Source of the DNA: Bacteroidota bacterium
GTDB taxonomy: Bacteria > Bacteroidota > Bacteroidia > Chitinophagales > Chitinophagaceae
Reading direction: 5' to 3'
DNA: 64,000 bases
Assembly: GCA_023429825.1 (NCBI GenBank)
Contig: JAEZDC010000035.1
Span: 3,003-67,002 of the forward strand
Both the position numbers and the translations under genes were made by a program. The notes beneath the pieces were generated by a model that saw nothing but the letters and a program-made list of their open reading frames with translations, had not been told where the DNA came from and ran no database searches. Positions 9,682 to 47,513 of this stretch are shown here, in pieces. The number at the start of each line of letters is the position of its first letter. The first letter of the stretch is position 1.

Positions 9682-10329
9682 ATGCCCATCATCGCTCCAT
9701 CATTATTAAGTGCTGATTTTCTGAATTTGAAAAGAGATTGCAACATGCTGAATGAAAGCCAGGCAGACTGGTTTCATTTAGATGTAATGGATGGAAGATT
9801 TGTGCCTAACCTGAGTTTTGGATTGCCTGTGATAGAACATATAAGGAAAGCCACCAAAAAAGTTTGCGATGTACACCTGATGATCCTTGAGCCGGAGAGG
9901 TATGCAGAAGCTTTTAAAAATGCAGGAGCAGATGTACTCACTGTTCATATCGAGGCTTGTACACATTTGCATAGGAATGTGCAGCAAATAAAGAGTTTGG
10001 GAATGAAGGCCGGCGTGGCACTCAATCCGCATACACCAGTAAGCCAGTTAAGCGATATTCTTCATGATATCGATCTCGTTTGTTTGATGAGTGTGAACCC
10101 CGGGTTCGGCGGACAAAAGTTTATCGAGTTCACTTTGGAGAAAACAAAGCAATTACGAAAAATGATCTCTGATAAAGGACTAAATGTTCATATCGAAATT
10201 GATGGGGGAGTTACGGTTGAAAATGCACCTGCTATTCTCTCGGCTGGCGCCGACGTGCTGGTGGCAGGCAATACCGTATTTAAATCCACAGATCCTACAG
10301 CCACCATAGCCAAATTGAAGGCGCTTTAA
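9682..10329 (+). CDS. rpe: ribulose-phosphate 3-epimerase
   Basis: 215 aa. MPIIAPSLLSADF..HLDVMDGRFVPN..MSVNPGFGGQKF..IEIDGG are hallmark Rpe motifs. Confidence 0.92.
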   Translation: MPIIAPSLLSADFLNLKRDCNMLNESQADWFHLDVMDGRFVPNLSFGLPVIEHIRKATKKVCDVHLMILEPERYAEAFKNAGADVLTVHIEACTHLHRNVQQIKSLGMKAGVALNPHTPVSQLSDILHDIDLVCLMSVNPGFGGQKFIEFTLEKTKQLRKMISDKGLNVHIEIDGGVTVENAPAILSAGADVLVAGNTVFKSTDPTATIAKLKAL

Positions 10330-10392
10330 TCTCTTATATGTTTAAAACTTGTTGTAGGACGGCACAAGTCGTCCAAATTTGCATTGAAACAC

Positions 10393-10605
10393 CTGAAGTG
10401 CGTATAGAAATATGCGAAGAGCGCATAAAATAATGCGAAGTGTGCAAGAAACCATGCTAAACTCGCATGATAATGGCTGAAGGGCGTTTGGCAATAGTCG
10501 AAGTGCGTACAGAAACAGTCAAAGAGTAAATGGAAATGGTCAAAGCATGCATGAAACCAGTTGAATCAAGCACGACAACAGGCAAAGGGCGCATGAAAGG
10601 TGGAG
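10393..10605 (+). repeat. degenerate tandem array with an exact 21-bp period, 10 units
   Basis: The GAAG/AAAG anchor falls at 10395, 10416, 10437, 10458, 10479, 10500, 10521, 10542, 10563 and 10584, so every step is exactly 21 nt. A typical unit is tcGAAGtGCGtAcaGAAAcag. Stops occur in all frames. Confidence 0.75.
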
Positions 10606-10621
10606 CTGGGAACTTATAGAT

Positions 10622-10650
10622 AAAAAAAACCCCTCCAGGAGGAGGGGTTT
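10622..10650 (-). terminator. intrinsic terminator of the T9SS cargo gene
   Basis: aacccctcc (10628-10636) pairs with ggaggggtt (10641-10649) across a 4-nt loop. An A8 run on the plus strand is the T-run on the minus strand. Confidence 0.8.
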
Positions 10651-10671
10651 CAACTTATTGATCAAAAAAGC

Positions 10672-11982
10672 TTATTGTTTTACAAACTGCTTAGTTGTTT
10701 TTACACCATTGCTTTCAAATACCGCCATATAAGAACCAGGAGTAAGTTTGGTAGCACTGATAGTAGTCTGGATAGATTCTTCAGCCACATTCACCATTAA
10801 CACCTGCTTACCGGTAAGATCAAGAATTCTTACTACGGCACCCTTTTCACCTTTTCCATGTTGAATGGTGAGGCTGGTAGTCACAGGGTTTGGAAATACA
10901 TTAATTACTACAGATGATTTATTAGTTACAGGAACCACATCGCTGTATTTGAATGCACCATCTTTATCCATCATCTTCAAACGATAGTATCCAACACCTG
11001 GTAAAGGTTTAGCATCGCTGAAAGAATATGTATTGCTTGTTGCAGCTTTTGCATCCACATTGCCGATACTGCTGAATGATTGTCCGTTAGCGCTTCTTTC
11101 AACAGAGAATCCTTTTACGTTTACTTCGTTGGTTGTTGTCCATTCAACACCTACTGAACCTTTTGATAGGGCGGCTTTGAAAGAAGTGAGAGATAAAGGG
11201 AGAGGAGCATTAGTCCAACCCGTACCAGCTCTTACGCCATCTAATTGAGCTGTGGGTGACCCGGAAGCATCTTGTCTAAAAATAACAGAGGCAATAGAAG
11301 TGGGTTCAGTGGAAGATGTCCAGTTTGTATTGGTAATATTAGGACTTGGTTCTGTTGTAGTGAGAGTAGGATTTATAAACAATGCAACTTCATCATTAGC
11401 GCTCCCGGCTATAAATGTATATTTCAAAACAACAAGATGCGTCGTATTAATTGGCAGTTCTGTTGTAGAATAATTAACAGTTGATGCCGAACCGTTTCTT
11501 AAACCCAACACAAAAGTACCTGCTGTAACTCCCTGTCTAATTACTAAACGCCCAATGTAAGATGTACTGGTTGAGGTTGGTGCAAAAGCTGCTAGATATG
11601 TTCCAGCAGCATCACCACCTGCAGCTACTAACCCGCTAGTTGTAGTTACATTAATCAAAAAAGAAAAATATACACTACCACTTGTTTGGCTAGCAAACGA
11701 TCTTCTAACATCTTCACCGGCTCCACTTGTAATCTCAATTTTATTTGTTCCTGCGGAAGCTCCGCCATATCCAGAATAAGTCAATCCACCAGATGTAACG
11801 GATATATAAGGTGCATTTCCAGAGACGTAAGTCCATATACCTCCGCTCACATTAGCTCCTGTATTATTACCTGCGGTTAATTGACCGGTTGTATAATTGA
11901 AATCCTCTGAGAACAAATCAAGTCCCTGAGCATTTGCAAAAGAGACAGAAATAATAGCAATCAGTGTAAAAATTTTCTTCAT
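10672..11982 (-). CDS. secreted protein with T9SS type-A C-terminal sorting domain
   Basis: Signal peptide MKKIFTLIAIISVSFANAQ (ATG 11982; the ORF opens at 12003). The C-terminal ..VFPNPVTTSLTIQ..ILDLTGKQV..PGSYMAVFESNG..KQFVKQ is a Por_Secre_tail-type CTD. Confidence 0.75.
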   Translation of the reverse strand: MKKIFTLIAIISVSFANAQGLDLFSEDFNYTTGQLTAGNNTGANVSGGIWTYVSGNAPYISVTSGGLTYSGYGGASAGTNKIEITSGAGEDVRRSFASQTSGSVYFSFLINVTTTSGLVAAGGDAAGTYLAAFAPTSTSTSYIGRLVIRQGVTAGTFVLGLRNGSASTVNYSTTELPINTTHLVVLKYTFIAGSANDEVALFINPTLTTTEPSPNITNTNWTSSTEPTSIASVIFRQDASGSPTAQLDGVRAGTGWTNAPLPLSLTSFKAALSKGSVGVEWTTTNEVNVKGFSVERSANGQSFSSIGNVDAKAATSNTYSFSDAKPLPGVGYYRLKMMDKDGAFKYSDVVPVTNKSSVVINVFPNPVTTSLTIQHGKGEKGAVVRILDLTGKQVLMVNVAEESIQTTISATKLTPGSYMAVFESNGVKTTKQFVKQ

Positions 11983-12099
11983 AATTTCTAGTTTACTCTG
12001 CAAATATTACGTTTTTAACCTGATTTAAACATTGACGCAAATTTTTTAATACAGAGTTTTTTTAAATGCAATTAGTATTTTGAGCGCCAATAGGTTTTC

Positions 12100-20833: not shown

Positions 20834-21065
20834 TTAGACGGGCTGGTGTTGCTGTTAGGAAGCTTAGTGTACTGCTTCGAAAGGTTAGAGAACTGCAAGA
20901 AAGGAGAGCGATGGTCTTCGAAAGGTTAGTGTAAATCTGCGTAGGGCTAGGTACTGCTTAGAAACGTTAGTCTACTGCTTTGAAAGTTAAGTGTCCCTTT
21001 TCACTGGCTTAGTGTTGGTCTTAGACAGGTAAGTCCTGCTCTTAGATGGCTTTGTGCGTCTTCGA
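20834..21065 (-). repeat. about 21-bp periodic degenerate array (about 11 units), inverse orientation of the 10.4-kb array
   Basis: Two interleaved series of TTAG/TTCG-like anchors each step by about 21 nt (occasionally 20 or 22). They fall at 20834, 20855, 20876, 20917, 20958, 20979, 21021 and 21042, and at 20864, 20885, 20926, 20947, 20967, 20987, 21009 and 21030. The unit gcTTAGtgtactgcTTCGaaag has reverse complement ctttCGAAgcagTACActaagc, which resembles tCGAAgtgcgTACAgaaacag. Confidence 0.65.
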
Positions 21066-27240: not shown

Positions 27241-28073
27241 ATAACTCTCATCTTATAGTCTACAAGGCTATTTAGCATCAATCCAAATTTTCTGCCATTG
27301 CTTATCCTGATACGATTGTTCATCACCTCGTTTGAGTGAAGTTTCCTGATCTTCCTGAATAATGACTTGTAGTAAACAAAAGCAAGGTAAACACCTTTTT
27401 TGGATGATGGCGGCAGTTGTTTTATTCCTTCTAAGGCATAGCTTAAGTTTTCTTCTATGTCATGTTCAATTTCTCTTTTGGCTGCACAATTAAATTGCTC
27501 CCAGCTTACTCCCGGAAAATAAACCCTTCCTAAAATATGATAGTCGTGTTTCATATCTCGCAGGAAATTTATTTTCTGGAAAGCAGCACCTAATTTCATG
27601 GCAGAGGGTTTTAGTTGATCGTACATCTGCATATCTCCATTGGTAAAAACATGCAGGCACATTAATCCAACGACTTCTGCAGAACCTAAAATGTACTCTT
27701 CATACCTGGAGGTATTATACTTAACCTTTTCTAGATCCATTTCCATGCTTTTTAGAAACGTGTCGATCAATGCAGGATCAATATTATATTGATGAACTGC
27801 TTCCTGGAAAGCGTTGAGAATTGGATTGCAAGATATCCTGTGTTCAATAGCTTCAAATGTATCCCGGCGCATATTCTGCATCAGTTGGGCTTTATCGTAA
27901 CCATGAAAGCTATCCACTATCTCATCGGCTAATCGTACAAAACCATAAATCGCATACACAGCTTTTCTTAGTGAAGGGCTTAAAAAATAAATTCCCCACG
28001 AAAAGCTGGTACTGTAAGTCTTCGTAGTGAGCTTACATACTTTAGCTGATACCTCGTCAAATAATAGCTTCAT
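27237..28073 (-). CDS. crtB: phytoene synthase
   Basis: It has the Asp-rich motifs YGFVRLADEIVD and NFLRDMKHD. I chose the start at ATG 28073 (MKLLFDEV..); the ORF's longer N-terminus would overlap crtI by about 90 nt. Confidence 0.85.
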   Translation of the reverse strand: MKLLFDEVSAKVCKLTTKTYSTSFSWGIYFLSPSLRKAVYAIYGFVRLADEIVDSFHGYDKAQLMQNMRRDTFEAIEHRISCNPILNAFQEAVHQYNIDPALIDTFLKSMEMDLEKVKYNTSRYEEYILGSAEVVGLMCLHVFTNGDMQMYDQLKPSAMKLGAAFQKINFLRDMKHDYHILGRVYFPGVSWEQFNCAAKREIEHDIEENLSYALEGIKQLPPSSKKGVYLAFVYYKSLFRKIRKLHSNEVMNNRIRISNGRKFGLMLNSLVDYKMRVI

Positions 28074-29550
28074 GTACTGTGCTTTTAATATAATGGTGCA
28101 TTTGTTTGGCGGCAATATTTCCGGAGATGAGCGCGGGTGGAACACCTGGGCCCGGTACGGTCAACTGCCCCGCATACACTATGTTCTTTATTTTTTTATT
28201 GATGATCTTAGGCTTCAGAATAGCAGTTTGCCTGAGCGTATTCGCAAGACCATATGCGTTTCCATTATAGGCATTGTAATCATTGATAAAATCAGAAACG
28301 CAATAACTCTTTTTGAAATCAATATGTGCTGCAAGGTCTTCTTCACCGGTAAGTTTCTCAAGCCTCGCTAACATTATACGGAAATACTTTTCCCGCGTTG
28401 CTTCGTTGTCATCCAGGCCAGGCGCAATAGGCATGAGAAAGAATAGGTTTTCGTGGCCTATAGGTGCTACAGTTGCATCAGTTTGAGAAGGGCAACATAT
28501 ATAGAACAACGGCTTAGAAGGCCATTGTGGATGTTTGTATATTTCCTTGGAATGTTCAAATAAACTTTCTTCAAAAAATAAAGTGTGGTGGTTGATCTTT
28601 ATCCGTTTGTTCAACCCTACGTAATAGATAAGGCAGGAAGGAGCGAAGGTCTTTTTCTGCCAATATTCTTCTGTGTAATTTCTTTGTTCAGAGGAAAGCA
28701 GCTTCGATTCGATATGATGATAATCTGCAGCAGCAACAATGCCGTCGAACAGATATTCTTCTTCATCAACAACCAATCCTTGTGCTTTGTTGTTTTTAAC
28801 GACGATCTTAGATACAGTAGTCCCATAATTAAATTTTACTCCCTGTTGTTCAGCGATCTTTACCATTGAGCTGATCACCTTACCAAAGCCACCTTTAGGA
28901 TACCATGTTCCAAGTTTTAAACCGGCATAGTTCATCAGGCTATACAAGGCTGGTGTTTCTGAGGGCATAGCCCCCAGAAATAACACGGGAAACTCCATTA
29001 ATGCTGTTAGCTTAGGGTTACTGAAATACTTATTTATGTGGTTTGTAAATGATGTGAATACCTGTAAACGGAAAATGTTTGATAGAACACCTCTGTTAAC
29101 GAATTCCCGCATTGAAAGGCATGGCTTGTACACAAGATCACGGATACCTACTTCATATTTCACTTTAGCTTCCTGCATAAAGTGGTCAAGCTGTAAAGCA
29201 CTTCCCGGCTCAATGGATTCGAACAAATTCCGTAATGATGCATAATCTGCAGGAATACTGATACGTTCATTGTTATCGTAAACCACAGTAAACGCAGGAT
29301 CTAAAAGCTGAAGATCATACAGATCTTTTGTGCAATAACCGAAATCACTAAAGAACTTTTCAAACACGTCTGGCATCCAGTACCAACTGGGGCCCATATC
29401 AAATAGGTAACCTTTTTCTGTAAAGGTTCTTGCTCTGCCCCCTGGCGAATCATTTTTCTCAAAGACTTCCACATCATGGCCCTGCTTTGCTAAATAGCAA
29501 GCTGCACTCAATCCCGAAAAACCGCTTCCGATAACACCTATTTTAGCCAT
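28057..29550 (-). CDS. crtI: phytoene desaturase
   Basis: 497 aa. It has an N-terminal FAD fold (IGVIGSGFSGLSAACYLAKQGHDVEVFEKNDSPGGRA) and a C-terminal ..YAGQLTVPGPGVPPALISG motif. Confidence 0.9.
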   Translation of the reverse strand: MAKIGVIGSGFSGLSAACYLAKQGHDVEVFEKNDSPGGRARTFTEKGYLFDMGPSWYWMPDVFEKFFSDFGYCTKDLYDLQLLDPAFTVVYDNNERISIPADYASLRNLFESIEPGSALQLDHFMQEAKVKYEVGIRDLVYKPCLSMREFVNRGVLSNIFRLQVFTSFTNHINKYFSNPKLTALMEFPVLFLGAMPSETPALYSLMNYAGLKLGTWYPKGGFGKVISSMVKIAEQQGVKFNYGTTVSKIVVKNNKAQGLVVDEEEYLFDGIVAAADYHHIESKLLSSEQRNYTEEYWQKKTFAPSCLIYYVGLNKRIKINHHTLFFEESLFEHSKEIYKHPQWPSKPLFYICCPSQTDATVAPIGHENLFFLMPIAPGLDDNEATREKYFRIMLARLEKLTGEEDLAAHIDFKKSYCVSDFINDYNAYNGNAYGLANTLRQTAILKPKIINKKIKNIVYAGQLTVPGPGVPPALISGNIAAKQMHHYIKSTVHEAII

Positions 29551-29573
29551 GTTTAAAAACTATTTTACCAAAA

Positions 29574-30455
29574 TTAAACATCCATATTCTGCTCAAGTTC
29601 TTCTATTGAACTGATGATCTGAATGTTGCCGGGAACCTTCAGATCAGCGACAACTGATTGGTTAGCTGCAATAAAGATTTTTTTTTGGGGGAATGTATAT
29701 TTTAGTGAACCCAGGTATTCCTGTTGTTGCTGTTTGGTGTAATTATTTACGAAAAAGGTTATAAGGTGAGTGGCACGCGTTTCTTTTACTGCGTCTGCAA
29801 GAGATCGTTGGGGGACATTACTCCCTAAATAGATAACCTTATGGCCTGCGGACCTTATAAGATATGAGGCGAAGAGCAAACCGATTTCGTGGAACTCATC
29901 TTCTGGAAGAAAGCACACCCAGGTTTGTTTTGTATTTGAAGATGCAGATAAAGCATCGATAGCGGTGAATATTTTCTGCCTGAACAGGTTCGAGATAAAA
30001 TGTTCTTTCGCAGGGGGAATTGTATTGGCAGACCAGAGTATTCCTATTCGCTGTAATACAGGATATATGATTTGCTTATAAGTGCCTGTAATTGTAAAGC
30101 GTAACAGGCAATGAGAAAATACCTTCTCAAATGATACTTCATCAAAACTAAGTGCTGCTGAAACAAGTTGCGTGATATAGTAATCATATGCTTCAGATGT
30201 TTGTTTATCCGATTCAGATCGCATAAGCTTAAACAGATGCTCATCTTTCATTACACATAGATCAGAAATCCTGTAACCGGCAGTTGAAAGTGTGACGATA
30301 TTTAATAACCTTCGTAATTGCTGATCATCGTAATACCTGGTATTGCCTTCTGACCGATATGGTGTTAACGCATTATAGCGTTGCTCCCAAATGCGGATGG
30401 TATGGGCCTTAACCCCCGAGAATTGAGCAAGCTGCGAAATGCTGAAATTATTCAT
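29574..30455 (-). CDS. MerR-family regulator with B12-binding domain (CarH/LitR-type light-responsive repressor)
   Basis: It has a MerR HTH (FSISQLAQFSGVKAHTIRIWEQRY), a Wx9EH motif (W-SANTIPPAK-EH) and an ExHxxG cobalamin-ligand motif (EFHEIG). It is the first gene of the crt operon. Confidence 0.8.
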   Translation of the reverse strand: MNNFSISQLAQFSGVKAHTIRIWEQRYNALTPYRSEGNTRYYDDQQLRRLLNIVTLSTAGYRISDLCVMKDEHLFKLMRSESDKQTSEAYDYYITQLVSAALSFDEVSFEKVFSHCLLRFTITGTYKQIIYPVLQRIGILWSANTIPPAKEHFISNLFRQKIFTAIDALSASSNTKQTWVCFLPEDEFHEIGLLFASYLIRSAGHKVIYLGSNVPQRSLADAVKETRATHLITFFVNNYTKQQQQEYLGSLKYTFPQKKIFIAANQSVVADLKVPGNIQIISSIEELEQNMDV

Positions 30456-30465
30456 GTTTAAAAAA

Positions 30466-30473
30466 CAAATGTA
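30466..30473 (-). promoter_or_regulatory. Bacteroidota -7 promoter box (TAcaTTTG) for the carH-crt operon
   Basis: An exact TAnnTTTG match on the minus strand lies about 10 nt upstream of the ATG. It sits inside the inverted repeat gtttaaa (30456-30462) / tttaaac (30478-30484). Confidence 0.4.
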
Positions 30474-30527
30474 TATATTTAAACAATCAATTCACTTCAT
30501 TCTAAAGATTAAATTTTATTTTTATTC

Positions 30528-31313
30528 ATGTACAGTCTTCCGGATATATCAAGCCCGATCAACTTTCTTATAACTTCTGCAATAATATTCATGGTTGTGG
30601 TGGGGAGGTATTTCCTGGTAGCAGGGCTGTTTTATGTGGCTTTTTATATATGGCAACCTCGAAAATGGCAATCAAGAAAGATCAGCGCAAGGGAACATAG
30701 CAGTAAACAATTGCAAACAGAGATAGGATGGAGTATGATCACAGCTTTTATATTCGCTCTCACAGGTGCGTTGGCTGTTCTATTGTGGCAGATGGGTTGG
30801 TTGAAAGTATATATTAATGTTACAGACTATTCAATATGGTGGATGCCTGCGAGTTTTTTTATTGCTATGATACTTCACGAAACTTATTATTATTGGCTGC
30901 ACCGGTGGATGCACATGCCAAAGGTTTTCAGGTTACTGCACAAAGTGCATCATGATAGCAACATCACTTCGCCCTGGACGGCGTTTTCTTTTCACCCGTT
31001 TGAAGGTGTGCTCCAGGCAATTTTTTTACCTGCATTACTATTGATCCTTCCTATGCATTTGTATGTATTGATCCTACAACTTACTTTAATGACTTTCAGC
31101 AGTGTGATCAATCACCTCGATATTGAGATCTATCCTAAAAAATTCAATCGCCATTTTATTGGACGTTGGCTGATCGGCGCCACACATCATTCACTTCATC
31201 ACAAACAGTTCAGGTATAACTATGGATTGTATTTCACTTTCTGGGATAAGTGGAAACGTACAGAGAGTCCTCTTTATAACGACACATTCGAGTCAAAAAC
31301 GAATGCAGAATAA
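30528..31313 (+). CDS. fatty-acid hydroxylase / sterol desaturase superfamily membrane protein (candidate carotenoid-modifying enzyme)
   Basis: 261 aa with His boxes HETYYYWLHRWMH, HKVHH and HHSLHH. It is divergent from the carH-crt operon. Confidence 0.72.
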   Translation: MYSLPDISSPINFLITSAIIFMVVVGRYFLVAGLFYVAFYIWQPRKWQSRKISAREHSSKQLQTEIGWSMITAFIFALTGALAVLLWQMGWLKVYINVTDYSIWWMPASFFIAMILHETYYYWLHRWMHMPKVFRLLHKVHHDSNITSPWTAFSFHPFEGVLQAIFLPALLLILPMHLYVLILQLTLMTFSSVINHLDIEIYPKKFNRHFIGRWLIGATHHSLHHKQFRYNYGLYFTFWDKWKRTESPLYNDTFESKTNAE

Positions 31314-31334: not shown

Positions 31335-31679
31335 CTAACTCTGCCTCAGTTCTGTTATAAATTCTTTGATCGATCTCATCTGTTCCGGTGATAATTTTTT
31401 TAGTTCTTCGGATAGATTTAACTCAACTGCCCGCAGCTTTTGCAATGGATGATCTTCTGATACGGCAATATCATCTTCCGGCACCCATTTAAACAGGTCG
31501 TCAATCGTACAATGCAGAGCCAGGCAAAGTTTTTCCAGGTGTTTTGTATGGATCTTATCAATTAGGCCATTTACCAACCGGCTGGCAGTGTGATGCGCAA
31601 TACCATGCTTCATCAGATAAGCGGTGTGGCGCTCTATTCCTTTATTGAACATGAGTTGCTGAAGGTTGAGTTTGAGCAT
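31335..31679 (-). CDS. XRE-family helix-turn-helix transcriptional regulator
   Basis: 114 aa. The N-terminal 60 aa resemble a Cro/C1-type HTH (..HTAYLMKHGIAHHTASRLVNG..LEKLCLALHCTIDDLF). Confidence 0.65.
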   Translation of the reverse strand: MLKLNLQQLMFNKGIERHTAYLMKHGIAHHTASRLVNGLIDKIHTKHLEKLCLALHCTIDDLFKWVPEDDIAVSEDHPLQKLRAVELNLSEELKKLSPEQMRSIKEFITELRQS

Positions 31680-31872
31680 ATAGGGTTATTTTGTTTGAAA
31701 GATTGCGATGTGTGCAATAACTATTTTAAAGAACGTACTAAACTGCAGAATGTGTATATAGAAGCTGCTAAAGCAAGCATTAAATATTCAGCGTTGAGCA
31801 TGTAAATAATTAATGTGAGCACCATATCAATTAAAGGGTGTTTATTTTATGTCAATGCGGGAATTAAAACTG

Positions 31873-31980
31873 CTAAAGGGTAAATAAAAAGCTTCGAAGC
31901 GTGCACAAAACATAGGGAAGTGTGCATAACCTGAACCAATGCAGGCACAGAGAAACGCAAGTAGGGTATAAGAAGGGGCA
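31873..31980 (+). repeat. 21-bp periodic degenerate array (about 5 units), same family and orientation as 10393-10605
   Basis: Anchors fall at 31875 (aaag), 31896 (gaag), 31917 (gaag), 31938 and 31959, each 21 nt apart. Units include cttcGAAGcGTGCAcaaaacat and agGGAAGtGTGCAtaacc. Confidence 0.55.
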
Positions 31981-47321: not shown

Positions 47322-47513
47322 ATGAAAAAGTTATTTGCAATCTTAGCAGTTGCTGGTGTTATGGCAGCTTGCAACAGCGGTGATGATGCTGCTACAACTG
47401 ACACAACAACTACTACAGTTGACACAACTACAGTTCCAGCTACAGTTGATACATCTGCTGCTACTGTAGATACTTCAGCTGCAACTTCAGCTGATACAAC
47501 TACAACTAAGTAA
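47322..47513 (+). CDS. tiny Thr/Asp-rich lipoprotein (63 aa)
   Basis: It has MKKLFAILAVAGVMAAC (signal plus lipobox), then a low-complexity T/D/A tail with a duplicated ATVDTSA. Its own terminator follows. Confidence 0.55.
   Translation: MKKLFAILAVAGVMAACNSGDDAATTDTTTTTVDTTTVPATVDTSAATVDTSAATSADTTTTK

Follow-up and report, generated by a model that had tools for sequence, protein, structure and literature searches.

The spacer between rpe and the gene convergent with it in the Chitinophagaceae genome studied here contains array A, a run of 10-11 head-to-tail 21-nt units (plus strand, positions 10375-10605 of the window, the whole 64,000-nt stretch of DNA that was analyzed). Array A is real, non-coding and lineage-specific. 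Judged by its unit sequence, it is also an orphan member of a unit family that belongs to the gene for a small HTH protein at 31335-31679. The best explanation, to which we assign a probability of roughly 0.45, is that array A is an orphan copy of the phased docking array of this protein, which would act as a secondary docking or titration site or have no selected role.

Sequence and setting of array A

Array A is degenerate, with 58% identity between units at lag 21. Over 10393-10605, lags of 21, 42 and 63 give self-identities of 0.578, 0.509 and 0.507, compared with 0.19-0.34 (about 0.25) at the remaining lags; the identities at lags 7 and 14 are both 0.33, and the primitive period is 21. 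When printed as 21-nt rows, the units remain in register, which bears out the exact 21-bp period without phase slip described in an earlier note on this DNA. The ten anchors (GAAG, AAAG or GAAT) that the note had placed along the array are present at nine positions, and the sequence at the remaining one, 10458, reads TAAA. A segment finder bounds the array at 10375-10598 (C66:13377-13600, where C numbers denote contigs of the assembly), and an extra degenerate unit, TTTGCATTGAAAC, 5ʹ of 10393 moves its start to 10375. The family consensus is nGnGCAT-rAAA-n6-(C)GAAG, and the plus strand is purine-rich (AT skew 0.40, GC skew 0.24). Stop codons interrupt all six frames, as had been claimed, with counts of 7, 3 and 3 on the plus strand and 2, 1 and 1 on the minus strand, and the variable columns have no period of 3. 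Taken alone, array A is marginal in a test of column heterogeneity (p 0.06).

Upstream of the array lies rpe, which encodes ribulose-phosphate 3-epimerase (9682-10329, plus strand, in the open reading frame list; Pfam PF00834, E 1e-78). Between the rpe stop codon and the array, a hairpin scan of the spacer located a weak hairpin, GGACGGCACAAGTCGTCC (10357-10374, plus strand), that may or may not serve as a terminator of rpe transcripts. Downstream, terminator and hairpin scans identified a bidirectional intrinsic terminator at 10626-10651, consisting of an A-run, a 10-11-bp G+C-rich hairpin and a T-run. This terminator is followed by the gene for a 443-aa protein that bears a type IX secretion C-terminal sorting domain (Por_Secre_tail; 10672-12003, minus strand; Pfam PF18962, E 8e-11). 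The terminator is common to both convergent genes and array A lies on its rpe side, so the array fills the space from the rpe stop codon to the shared terminator. If transcription reaches the terminator, array A would be part of the rpe 3ʹ untranslated region, and it is likely transcribed. That the array stands between two convergent genes (rpe on the plus strand and the Por_Secre_tail gene on the minus strand), where a promoter is unexpected, agrees with the earlier note.

In two congeners, whose Rpe proteins are approximately 80% identical, the order of rpe, terminator and convergent secreted-protein gene is kept. There, the terminator hairpin follows the rpe stop codon by about 20-45 nt and the array is absent. 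The DNA of array A has no BLAST match in 60 related genomes, and nine other array families likewise showed no DNA homology in 40 genomes. On these comparisons, array A is a lineage-specific insertion or expansion. Its flanks are rpe and the Por_Secre_tail gene; the closest HTH_26 gene is 21 kb away, and a search for an HTH pseudogene remnant beside the array found none.

Array C, its HTH gene and the shared unit

The relative of array A within the window is array C (31690-31962, plus strand), for which a phased print-out gives approximately 13 phased 21-nt units with the core AAG/ATG-TGnGCAT. Array C fills the spacer directly upstream of a 114-aa Cro/C1-type HTH gene (HTH_26; 31335-31679, minus strand; Pfam PF13443, E 2e-10), for which an AF2 model compared by Foldseek gives an XRE-type fold. 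Its product is a candidate binder of arrays C and A. The link was found through two arrays of the same family whose homologous flanks are paralogous 114-aa genes. Of the two related arrays named in the earlier note, the one at 31873-31980 does belong to the unit family of array A, its true extent being 31690-31962; matrix scans give no link to the other, at 20834-21065.

Membership of the family was defined with a phased matrix derived from array C and summed over six successive units across the whole genome. This matrix finds exactly three other places in 3.68 Mb, namely C28:7512 (or 7521), C88:8584 (or 8598) and array A, with scores of 76, 69 and 63 (the last being that of array A); the next best score is 14. 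The reverse scan with the array A matrix recovers the same set, with a score of 44 against a background of at most 26, and clustering agrees on a family containing arrays A and C. The profile scan suggested in the earlier note thus yields three other copies genome-wide, far above background, and the unit family has four members. Moreover, the conserved and variable columns of arrays A, C and C88 coincide (Spearman 0.57-0.73 between information profiles, p 0.008-0.0002). This shared column pattern could have come from a copied source array, without selection in array A.

By tblastn and profile search, the genome has six HTH_26 paralogues, and each of the six has a 21-nt array 58-190 nt upstream. 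Of the five HTH-adjacent unit families, four include 1-3 orphan arrays each and one, C129, is without orphans. At least 20 of the approximately 42 arrays fall in unit families with no HTH_26 gene adjoining any member. The idea that more distant HTH paralogues stand next to these remaining arrays was rejected, as the profile search finds only the six. Within the window, the HTH module is inserted beside a carotenoid-type cluster (28057-31313) with phytoene-desaturase-like, MerR/B12-type regulator-like and fatty-acid-hydroxylase-family genes, among which the Pfam check covered the hydroxylase gene and, beside the module, the dehydrogenase gene only. The module is divergent from this short-chain dehydrogenase gene, and no defence genes are nearby.

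On the evidence of sequence comparison, a small HTH_26 gene with an upstream 21-bp array is a module that recurs in two phyla. A scan of one genome per species gave 212 HTH relatives, from which 80 loci were kept; these span Chitinophagales, Saprospiraceae, Cytophagales and Sphingobacteriales as well as Acidobacteriota (Pyrinomonadaceae, Blastocatellaceae and Chloracidobacterium). In 59 of 75 loci, self-similarity within 500 nt upstream of the HTH homologue peaks at a lag of 21 or 42, and 44 of the 75 reach an identity of at least 0.5; the downstream control of 75 loci gives 14 and 0, respectively. The median module array has 10.4 units, and the median distance from array end to start codon is 34 nt; about 15 columns of the unit are conserved and 4-6 variable. 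The more alike two HTH proteins are, the more alike their units (Mantel p ~5e-4); this resemblance is detectable only above approximately 45-60% protein identity. In 24 of the 25 best pairs, the units also have the same orientation relative to their genes. No conserved neighbor gene accompanies the HTH gene among the 80 loci. Since the pairing persists in two phyla although the unit sequence has turned over completely, selection must maintain at least those arrays. Array C occupies the position that defines the module, immediately 5ʹ of a small Cro/C1-type HTH gene. Array A, with 10-11 units, falls within the 7-14 or so units of strict 21-nt (or 42-nt) period that characterize the module and shares its unit with an HTH-adjacent array, but is not upstream of an HTH gene.

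The HTH gene is patchy in Chitinophagaceae, with strong matches in approximately 11 of 201 genomes, several of which contain 2-6 copies, and the family is absent from six congeners. In four further family relatives that do have the gene, an array again lies upstream. In G071, a genome from another genus with five HTH copies, the pattern from one HTH-adjacent array also finds orphan arrays, whereas in two other genomes with the module the unit was found only next to the gene. A homologue search for the HTH protein returned four unnamed matches, and NCBIfam and PHROGs gave generic regulator matches only. Full-text literature searches found no description of the HTH-plus-array module or its orphans.

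Other 21-nt arrays in the genome and in a congener

The genome scanned is a 3.68-Mb Chitinophagaceae assembly of 136 contigs. A lag-21 identity of at least 0.48 over 126 nt occurs at approximately 50-63 places, whereas lags of 19, 20, 23 and 25 reach the same threshold at 0-1 places. Primitive tandem periods peak genome-wide at 7 (23 arrays), 11 (30), 21 (44) and 42 (11), and periods of 14, 28 and 35 are nearly missing; TRF also reports 21 as the commonest period. Array periods are sharply quantized at 7, 11, 21, 42(43) and 63 nt. Removal of heptamer runs leaves approximately 42 21-nt arrays of 5-17 units, which fall into at least 11 unit families. About 35 of these arrays are intergenic and occupy all kinds of spacer, with seven in convergent spacers, and a few 21-nt repeats are located inside real large genes. 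Each array has its own unit, yet families exist: 26 array pairs exceed the 99.9% null from column-shuffled matrices, where 0.9 would be expected. Arrays grow by multi-unit duplication, for example through a 126-nt repeat in C28, and in most of them the lag-7 identity of 0.14-0.35 represents a faint 7-nt sub-periodicity.

Several other origins were considered and rejected. Dispersal of single units in the manner of REP elements does not fit, given that a genome scan almost never finds units outside arrays. A larger mobile element carrying the array was rejected on the flanks of family members, which lack homology save for a few paralogous neighbor genes and an unrelated element of about 55 nt. 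The arrays are not CRISPR arrays, as they consist of contiguous 21-mers with approximately 6 variable columns and not of repeats of at least 23 nt alternating with unique spacers.

The other arrays are diverse. Array B (20860-21065, no strand assigned; TRF 20860-20994, period 21, 6.5 copies, reverse-complement unit TCGAAGCAGTACACTAACCTT) forms its own unit family; its matrix matches only itself, and it is not in the family of arrays A and C. It lies in a long gene-free region and shares only a TCGAAG hexamer with array A. The largest array family has six arrays, including C44:3153-3582, C71:45682-45893, C72:28187-28450 and C76:9834-9990, with no HTH gene nearby. Its unit consists of a hairpin, GTGAGAAAAATCTCAC, and a 5-nt linker, and two of its members follow paralogous 173-233-aa genes (C71:45078-45599 and C76:9007-9708). 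A dispersed element of about 50-60 nt, 80-94% identical between copies, is found 70-150 nt from five unrelated arrays (C13:10758, C42:31899, C101:28911, C110:46698 and C20:12926). Arrays are also found at contig ends (C36:1-119, C77:2-131, C3:73-319 and C35:373); arrays of one family probably break short-read assembly, and the count of approximately 42 is therefore a lower bound. Within the window, a 21-nt repeat of the CTACAGTTGACACAACT type (47389-47507; C66:50391-50509) lies inside a 103-aa open frame on the minus strand; its elevated lag-3 identity (0.42) makes it a probable coding repeat as opposed to an intergenic array.

A second pairing of gene and array involves a family of 227-253-aa all-helical proteins without a Pfam match, which have a 21-nt array 20-110 nt upstream. 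The array accompanies all three paralogues of the genome studied here (C117:83029-84003, C92:837-1810 and C91:25772-26722) and a member in the congener G002 (L182:15488-16516). The G002 array of this family is made up of two inverted half-arrays with an AGTTGAC core that is common to arrays C91 and C3 of the genome studied here. A structure model of the array-associated protein of about 230 aa has a pLDDT of 39 and is unusable.

The congener G002 lacks the HTH family. It has two 21-nt arrays in 800 kb, about one third of the approximately 6 expected at the density of the genome studied here, with a search method that recovers 13 of 20 known arrays. One of the two, at L177:14249-14470, is an 11-unit 21-nt array (AACTGCCTTTAGTTAGCTTTG) with the stop codon of a serine-dehydratase-like gene on one side and a bidirectional terminator on the other, the same placement as that of array A. 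Restriction of such arrays to HTH-bearing genomes is rejected by these two arrays, and their presence without the HTH family means that the HTH protein is not needed to make or keep every such array. Some broader process gives rise to helically phased arrays in this lineage.

Readings of array A and comparison with known systems

The earlier note had left open a phased protein-binding array or a structured RNA. Protein binding is the better of these two options, on indirect support: the unit of array A matches the array upstream of a Cro/C1-type HTH gene whose homologues in two phyla nearly always carry their own 21- or 42-nt array. Under this explanation, the spacer from the rpe stop codon to the shared terminator would have gained array A by insertion or expansion. 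We infer that the HTH protein would bind one asymmetric site of about 15 bp in each unit. Since the sites repeat every two helical turns, the bound proteins would be aligned head-to-tail on one DNA face, where binding may be cooperative. At array C, the predicted outcome is autoregulation of the HTH gene. With no promoter under its control, array A would serve as an orphan for docking or titration, or would be a copied array that is still bound. It is probably a spare docking platform for the HTH protein.

The main rival explanation, somewhat unlikely in our estimate, is that array A is a neutral or selfish minisatellite, a phased tandem expansion or ectopic copy that resembles array C by descent only and has neither binder nor function. 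Such a view fits the genome-wide peaks of tandem periods at 7, 11, 21 and 42, the spread of arrays over all spacer kinds (seven of them convergent), growth by multi-unit duplication as in the 126-nt repeat of C28, and the lack of a cognate HTH gene for about half of the arrays. It is also compatible with the degeneracy of array A, its absence from congeners and the array of the same architecture in the HTH-less G002. However, slippage alone leaves unexplained both the sharp preference for 21 over 20 or 22 and the lack of periods of 14, 28 and 35. Furthermore, the coincidence of conserved and variable columns over three family arrays, the persistence of the HTH-array pairing over two phyla despite unit turnover, and an array density approximately three times that in 800 kb of G002 all count against it.

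An element acting at the RNA level is improbable. Array A would in this case provide repeated sites for an RNA-binding protein, or a stability element, in the rpe 3ʹ untranslated region, and gene-adjacent arrays would do so in 5ʹ leaders. The location of array A between stop codon and terminator makes transcription probable, the G002 array is placed alike, the plus strand of array A is purine-rich, and gene-adjacent arrays end close enough to start codons (median 34 nt) that many could be in leaders. Folding, however, gives no signal (z of -1.45 and +0.49 on the two strands), a scan of the whole window against Rfam 15 found no match at gathering score, and unit composition and strand bias vary between array families; in addition, the conserved partner gene encodes a DNA-binding HTH protein, and a spacing of two helical turns is characteristic of duplex DNA. 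The classic geometry of iterons and parC (R6K, P1, R1) is likewise one of tandem direct repeats, about 21 bp long and two turns apart, and array A could be a plasmid-type iteron origin or partition centromere captured in the chromosome. That reading is largely refuted, and highly improbable, in view of the approximately 42 arrays per genome, the candidate 114-aa XRE-type HTH binder and the HTH modules, none of which adjoins Rep, ParA/ParM or another conserved neighbor. Array A itself is flanked by housekeeping genes, on a 68-kb contig whose synteny is conserved, and a syntenic chromosomal spacer argues against a replicon origin. Least probable is a decayed heptad-repeat coding sequence, which the earlier note had named as an alternative that a coding repeat intact in relatives would reveal; in congeners, a short spacer without any gene occupies the site. 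While 21 nt equals 7 codons, at least one frame is stop-free in 27 of 42 arrays and a few 21-nt repeats occur inside real large genes, array A has stops in all six frames and variable columns without a period of 3. Moreover, stop-free frames among HTH-module arrays are no more frequent than expected for periodic DNA, at 15 of 46 in the sense and 10 of 46 in the antisense direction, with no excess of the former over the latter.

An extension of the docking-array explanation, which we consider distinctly unlikely as a whole, is a chromosomal iteron-like network of orthogonal protein-array pairs. Each HTH paralogue would polymerize on a private 21-bp code at its own promoter and on orphan arrays in unrelated spacers, and a coated orphan might be a titration sink that sets the level of free repressor, or a roadblock or insulator between convergent genes. 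In the manner of immunity regions, each array would undergo spread and diversification jointly with its binder, and the family of about 230 aa and other proteins would own the remaining array families. If the docking-array explanation itself holds, a small, widespread HTH family, found in Bacteroidota and Acidobacteriota with a patchy and often multi-copy distribution, keeps a private, fast-evolving 21-bp 'code' in long phased arrays, with copies also located far from promoters. Such arrays would be the chromosomal equivalent of the iteron and incA logic of plasmids and would supply orthogonal protein-DNA pairs ready for use. They would also account for a kind of intergenic repeat that annotation pipelines pass over and at which short-read assemblies break. 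Additionally, the strict two-turn period in arrays of unrelated sequence offers a clean test of helical phasing in bacterial non-coding DNA.

Among known systems, plasmid iterons include the 22-bp repeats of the R6K gamma origin and the 19-bp incC and incA arrays of P1, of which incA titrates protein. Like these, the arrays described here are tandem direct repeats about two helical turns apart (17-22 bp in iterons, exactly 21 bp here), with one array adjoining the gene for the presumed binder and others, built of the same unit, located elsewhere as orphans. Unlike iterons, they have no Rep initiator and are not seen in a replicon context; the presumed binder is a 114-aa XRE-type HTH protein with six orthogonal paralogues and dozens of chromosomal arrays, and array A lies between a stop codon and a terminator. 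Centromere-operator arrays with small adaptor proteins include ParR-parC of R1 and pSK41, the omega heptad arrays of pSM19035 and TubR-tubC. ParR and omega are ribbon-helix-helix proteins, and the systems work with a ParM, ParA or TubZ motor gene. There too, the gene for a small DNA-binding protein stands beside phased short direct repeats, and the cooperative coating and autoregulation of those systems are what we would predict here. However, a conserved motor or partner gene is absent among the 80 HTH loci, the fold is that of an XRE HTH protein and each unit measures 21 bp.

BldC of Streptomyces, a protein with a MerR/Xis-like fold, multimerizes head-to-tail on short runs of repeats at many promoters. 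The HTH protein described here is similarly small and sensor-less and, given its asymmetric unit, may likewise bind direct repeats as a head-to-tail multimer; it differs from BldC in its Cro/C1-type fold, its arrays of 10-16 units and the private unit sequence of each paralogue. Long simple-sequence repeats, reportedly described by Mrazek and colleagues in 2007 with units of 5-11 nt, are likewise intergenic, fast-evolving tandem arrays, and arrays of 7 and 11 nt are abundant in this genome. Unlike these repeats, the arrays considered here have a 21-nt unit and dispersed unit families, some of which are tied to one gene family across phyla. Lastly, the Brt RNAs upstream of the Trp genes of Bartonella, which encode XRE-family HTH proteins, are reported to be a genus-specific RNA family (PMC5387305). 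Both that system and the one described here are multi-copy modules with a conserved non-coding element before each small XRE-type HTH gene; here, however, the element is a 21-bp tandem array without a folding signal that also occurs away from HTH genes.
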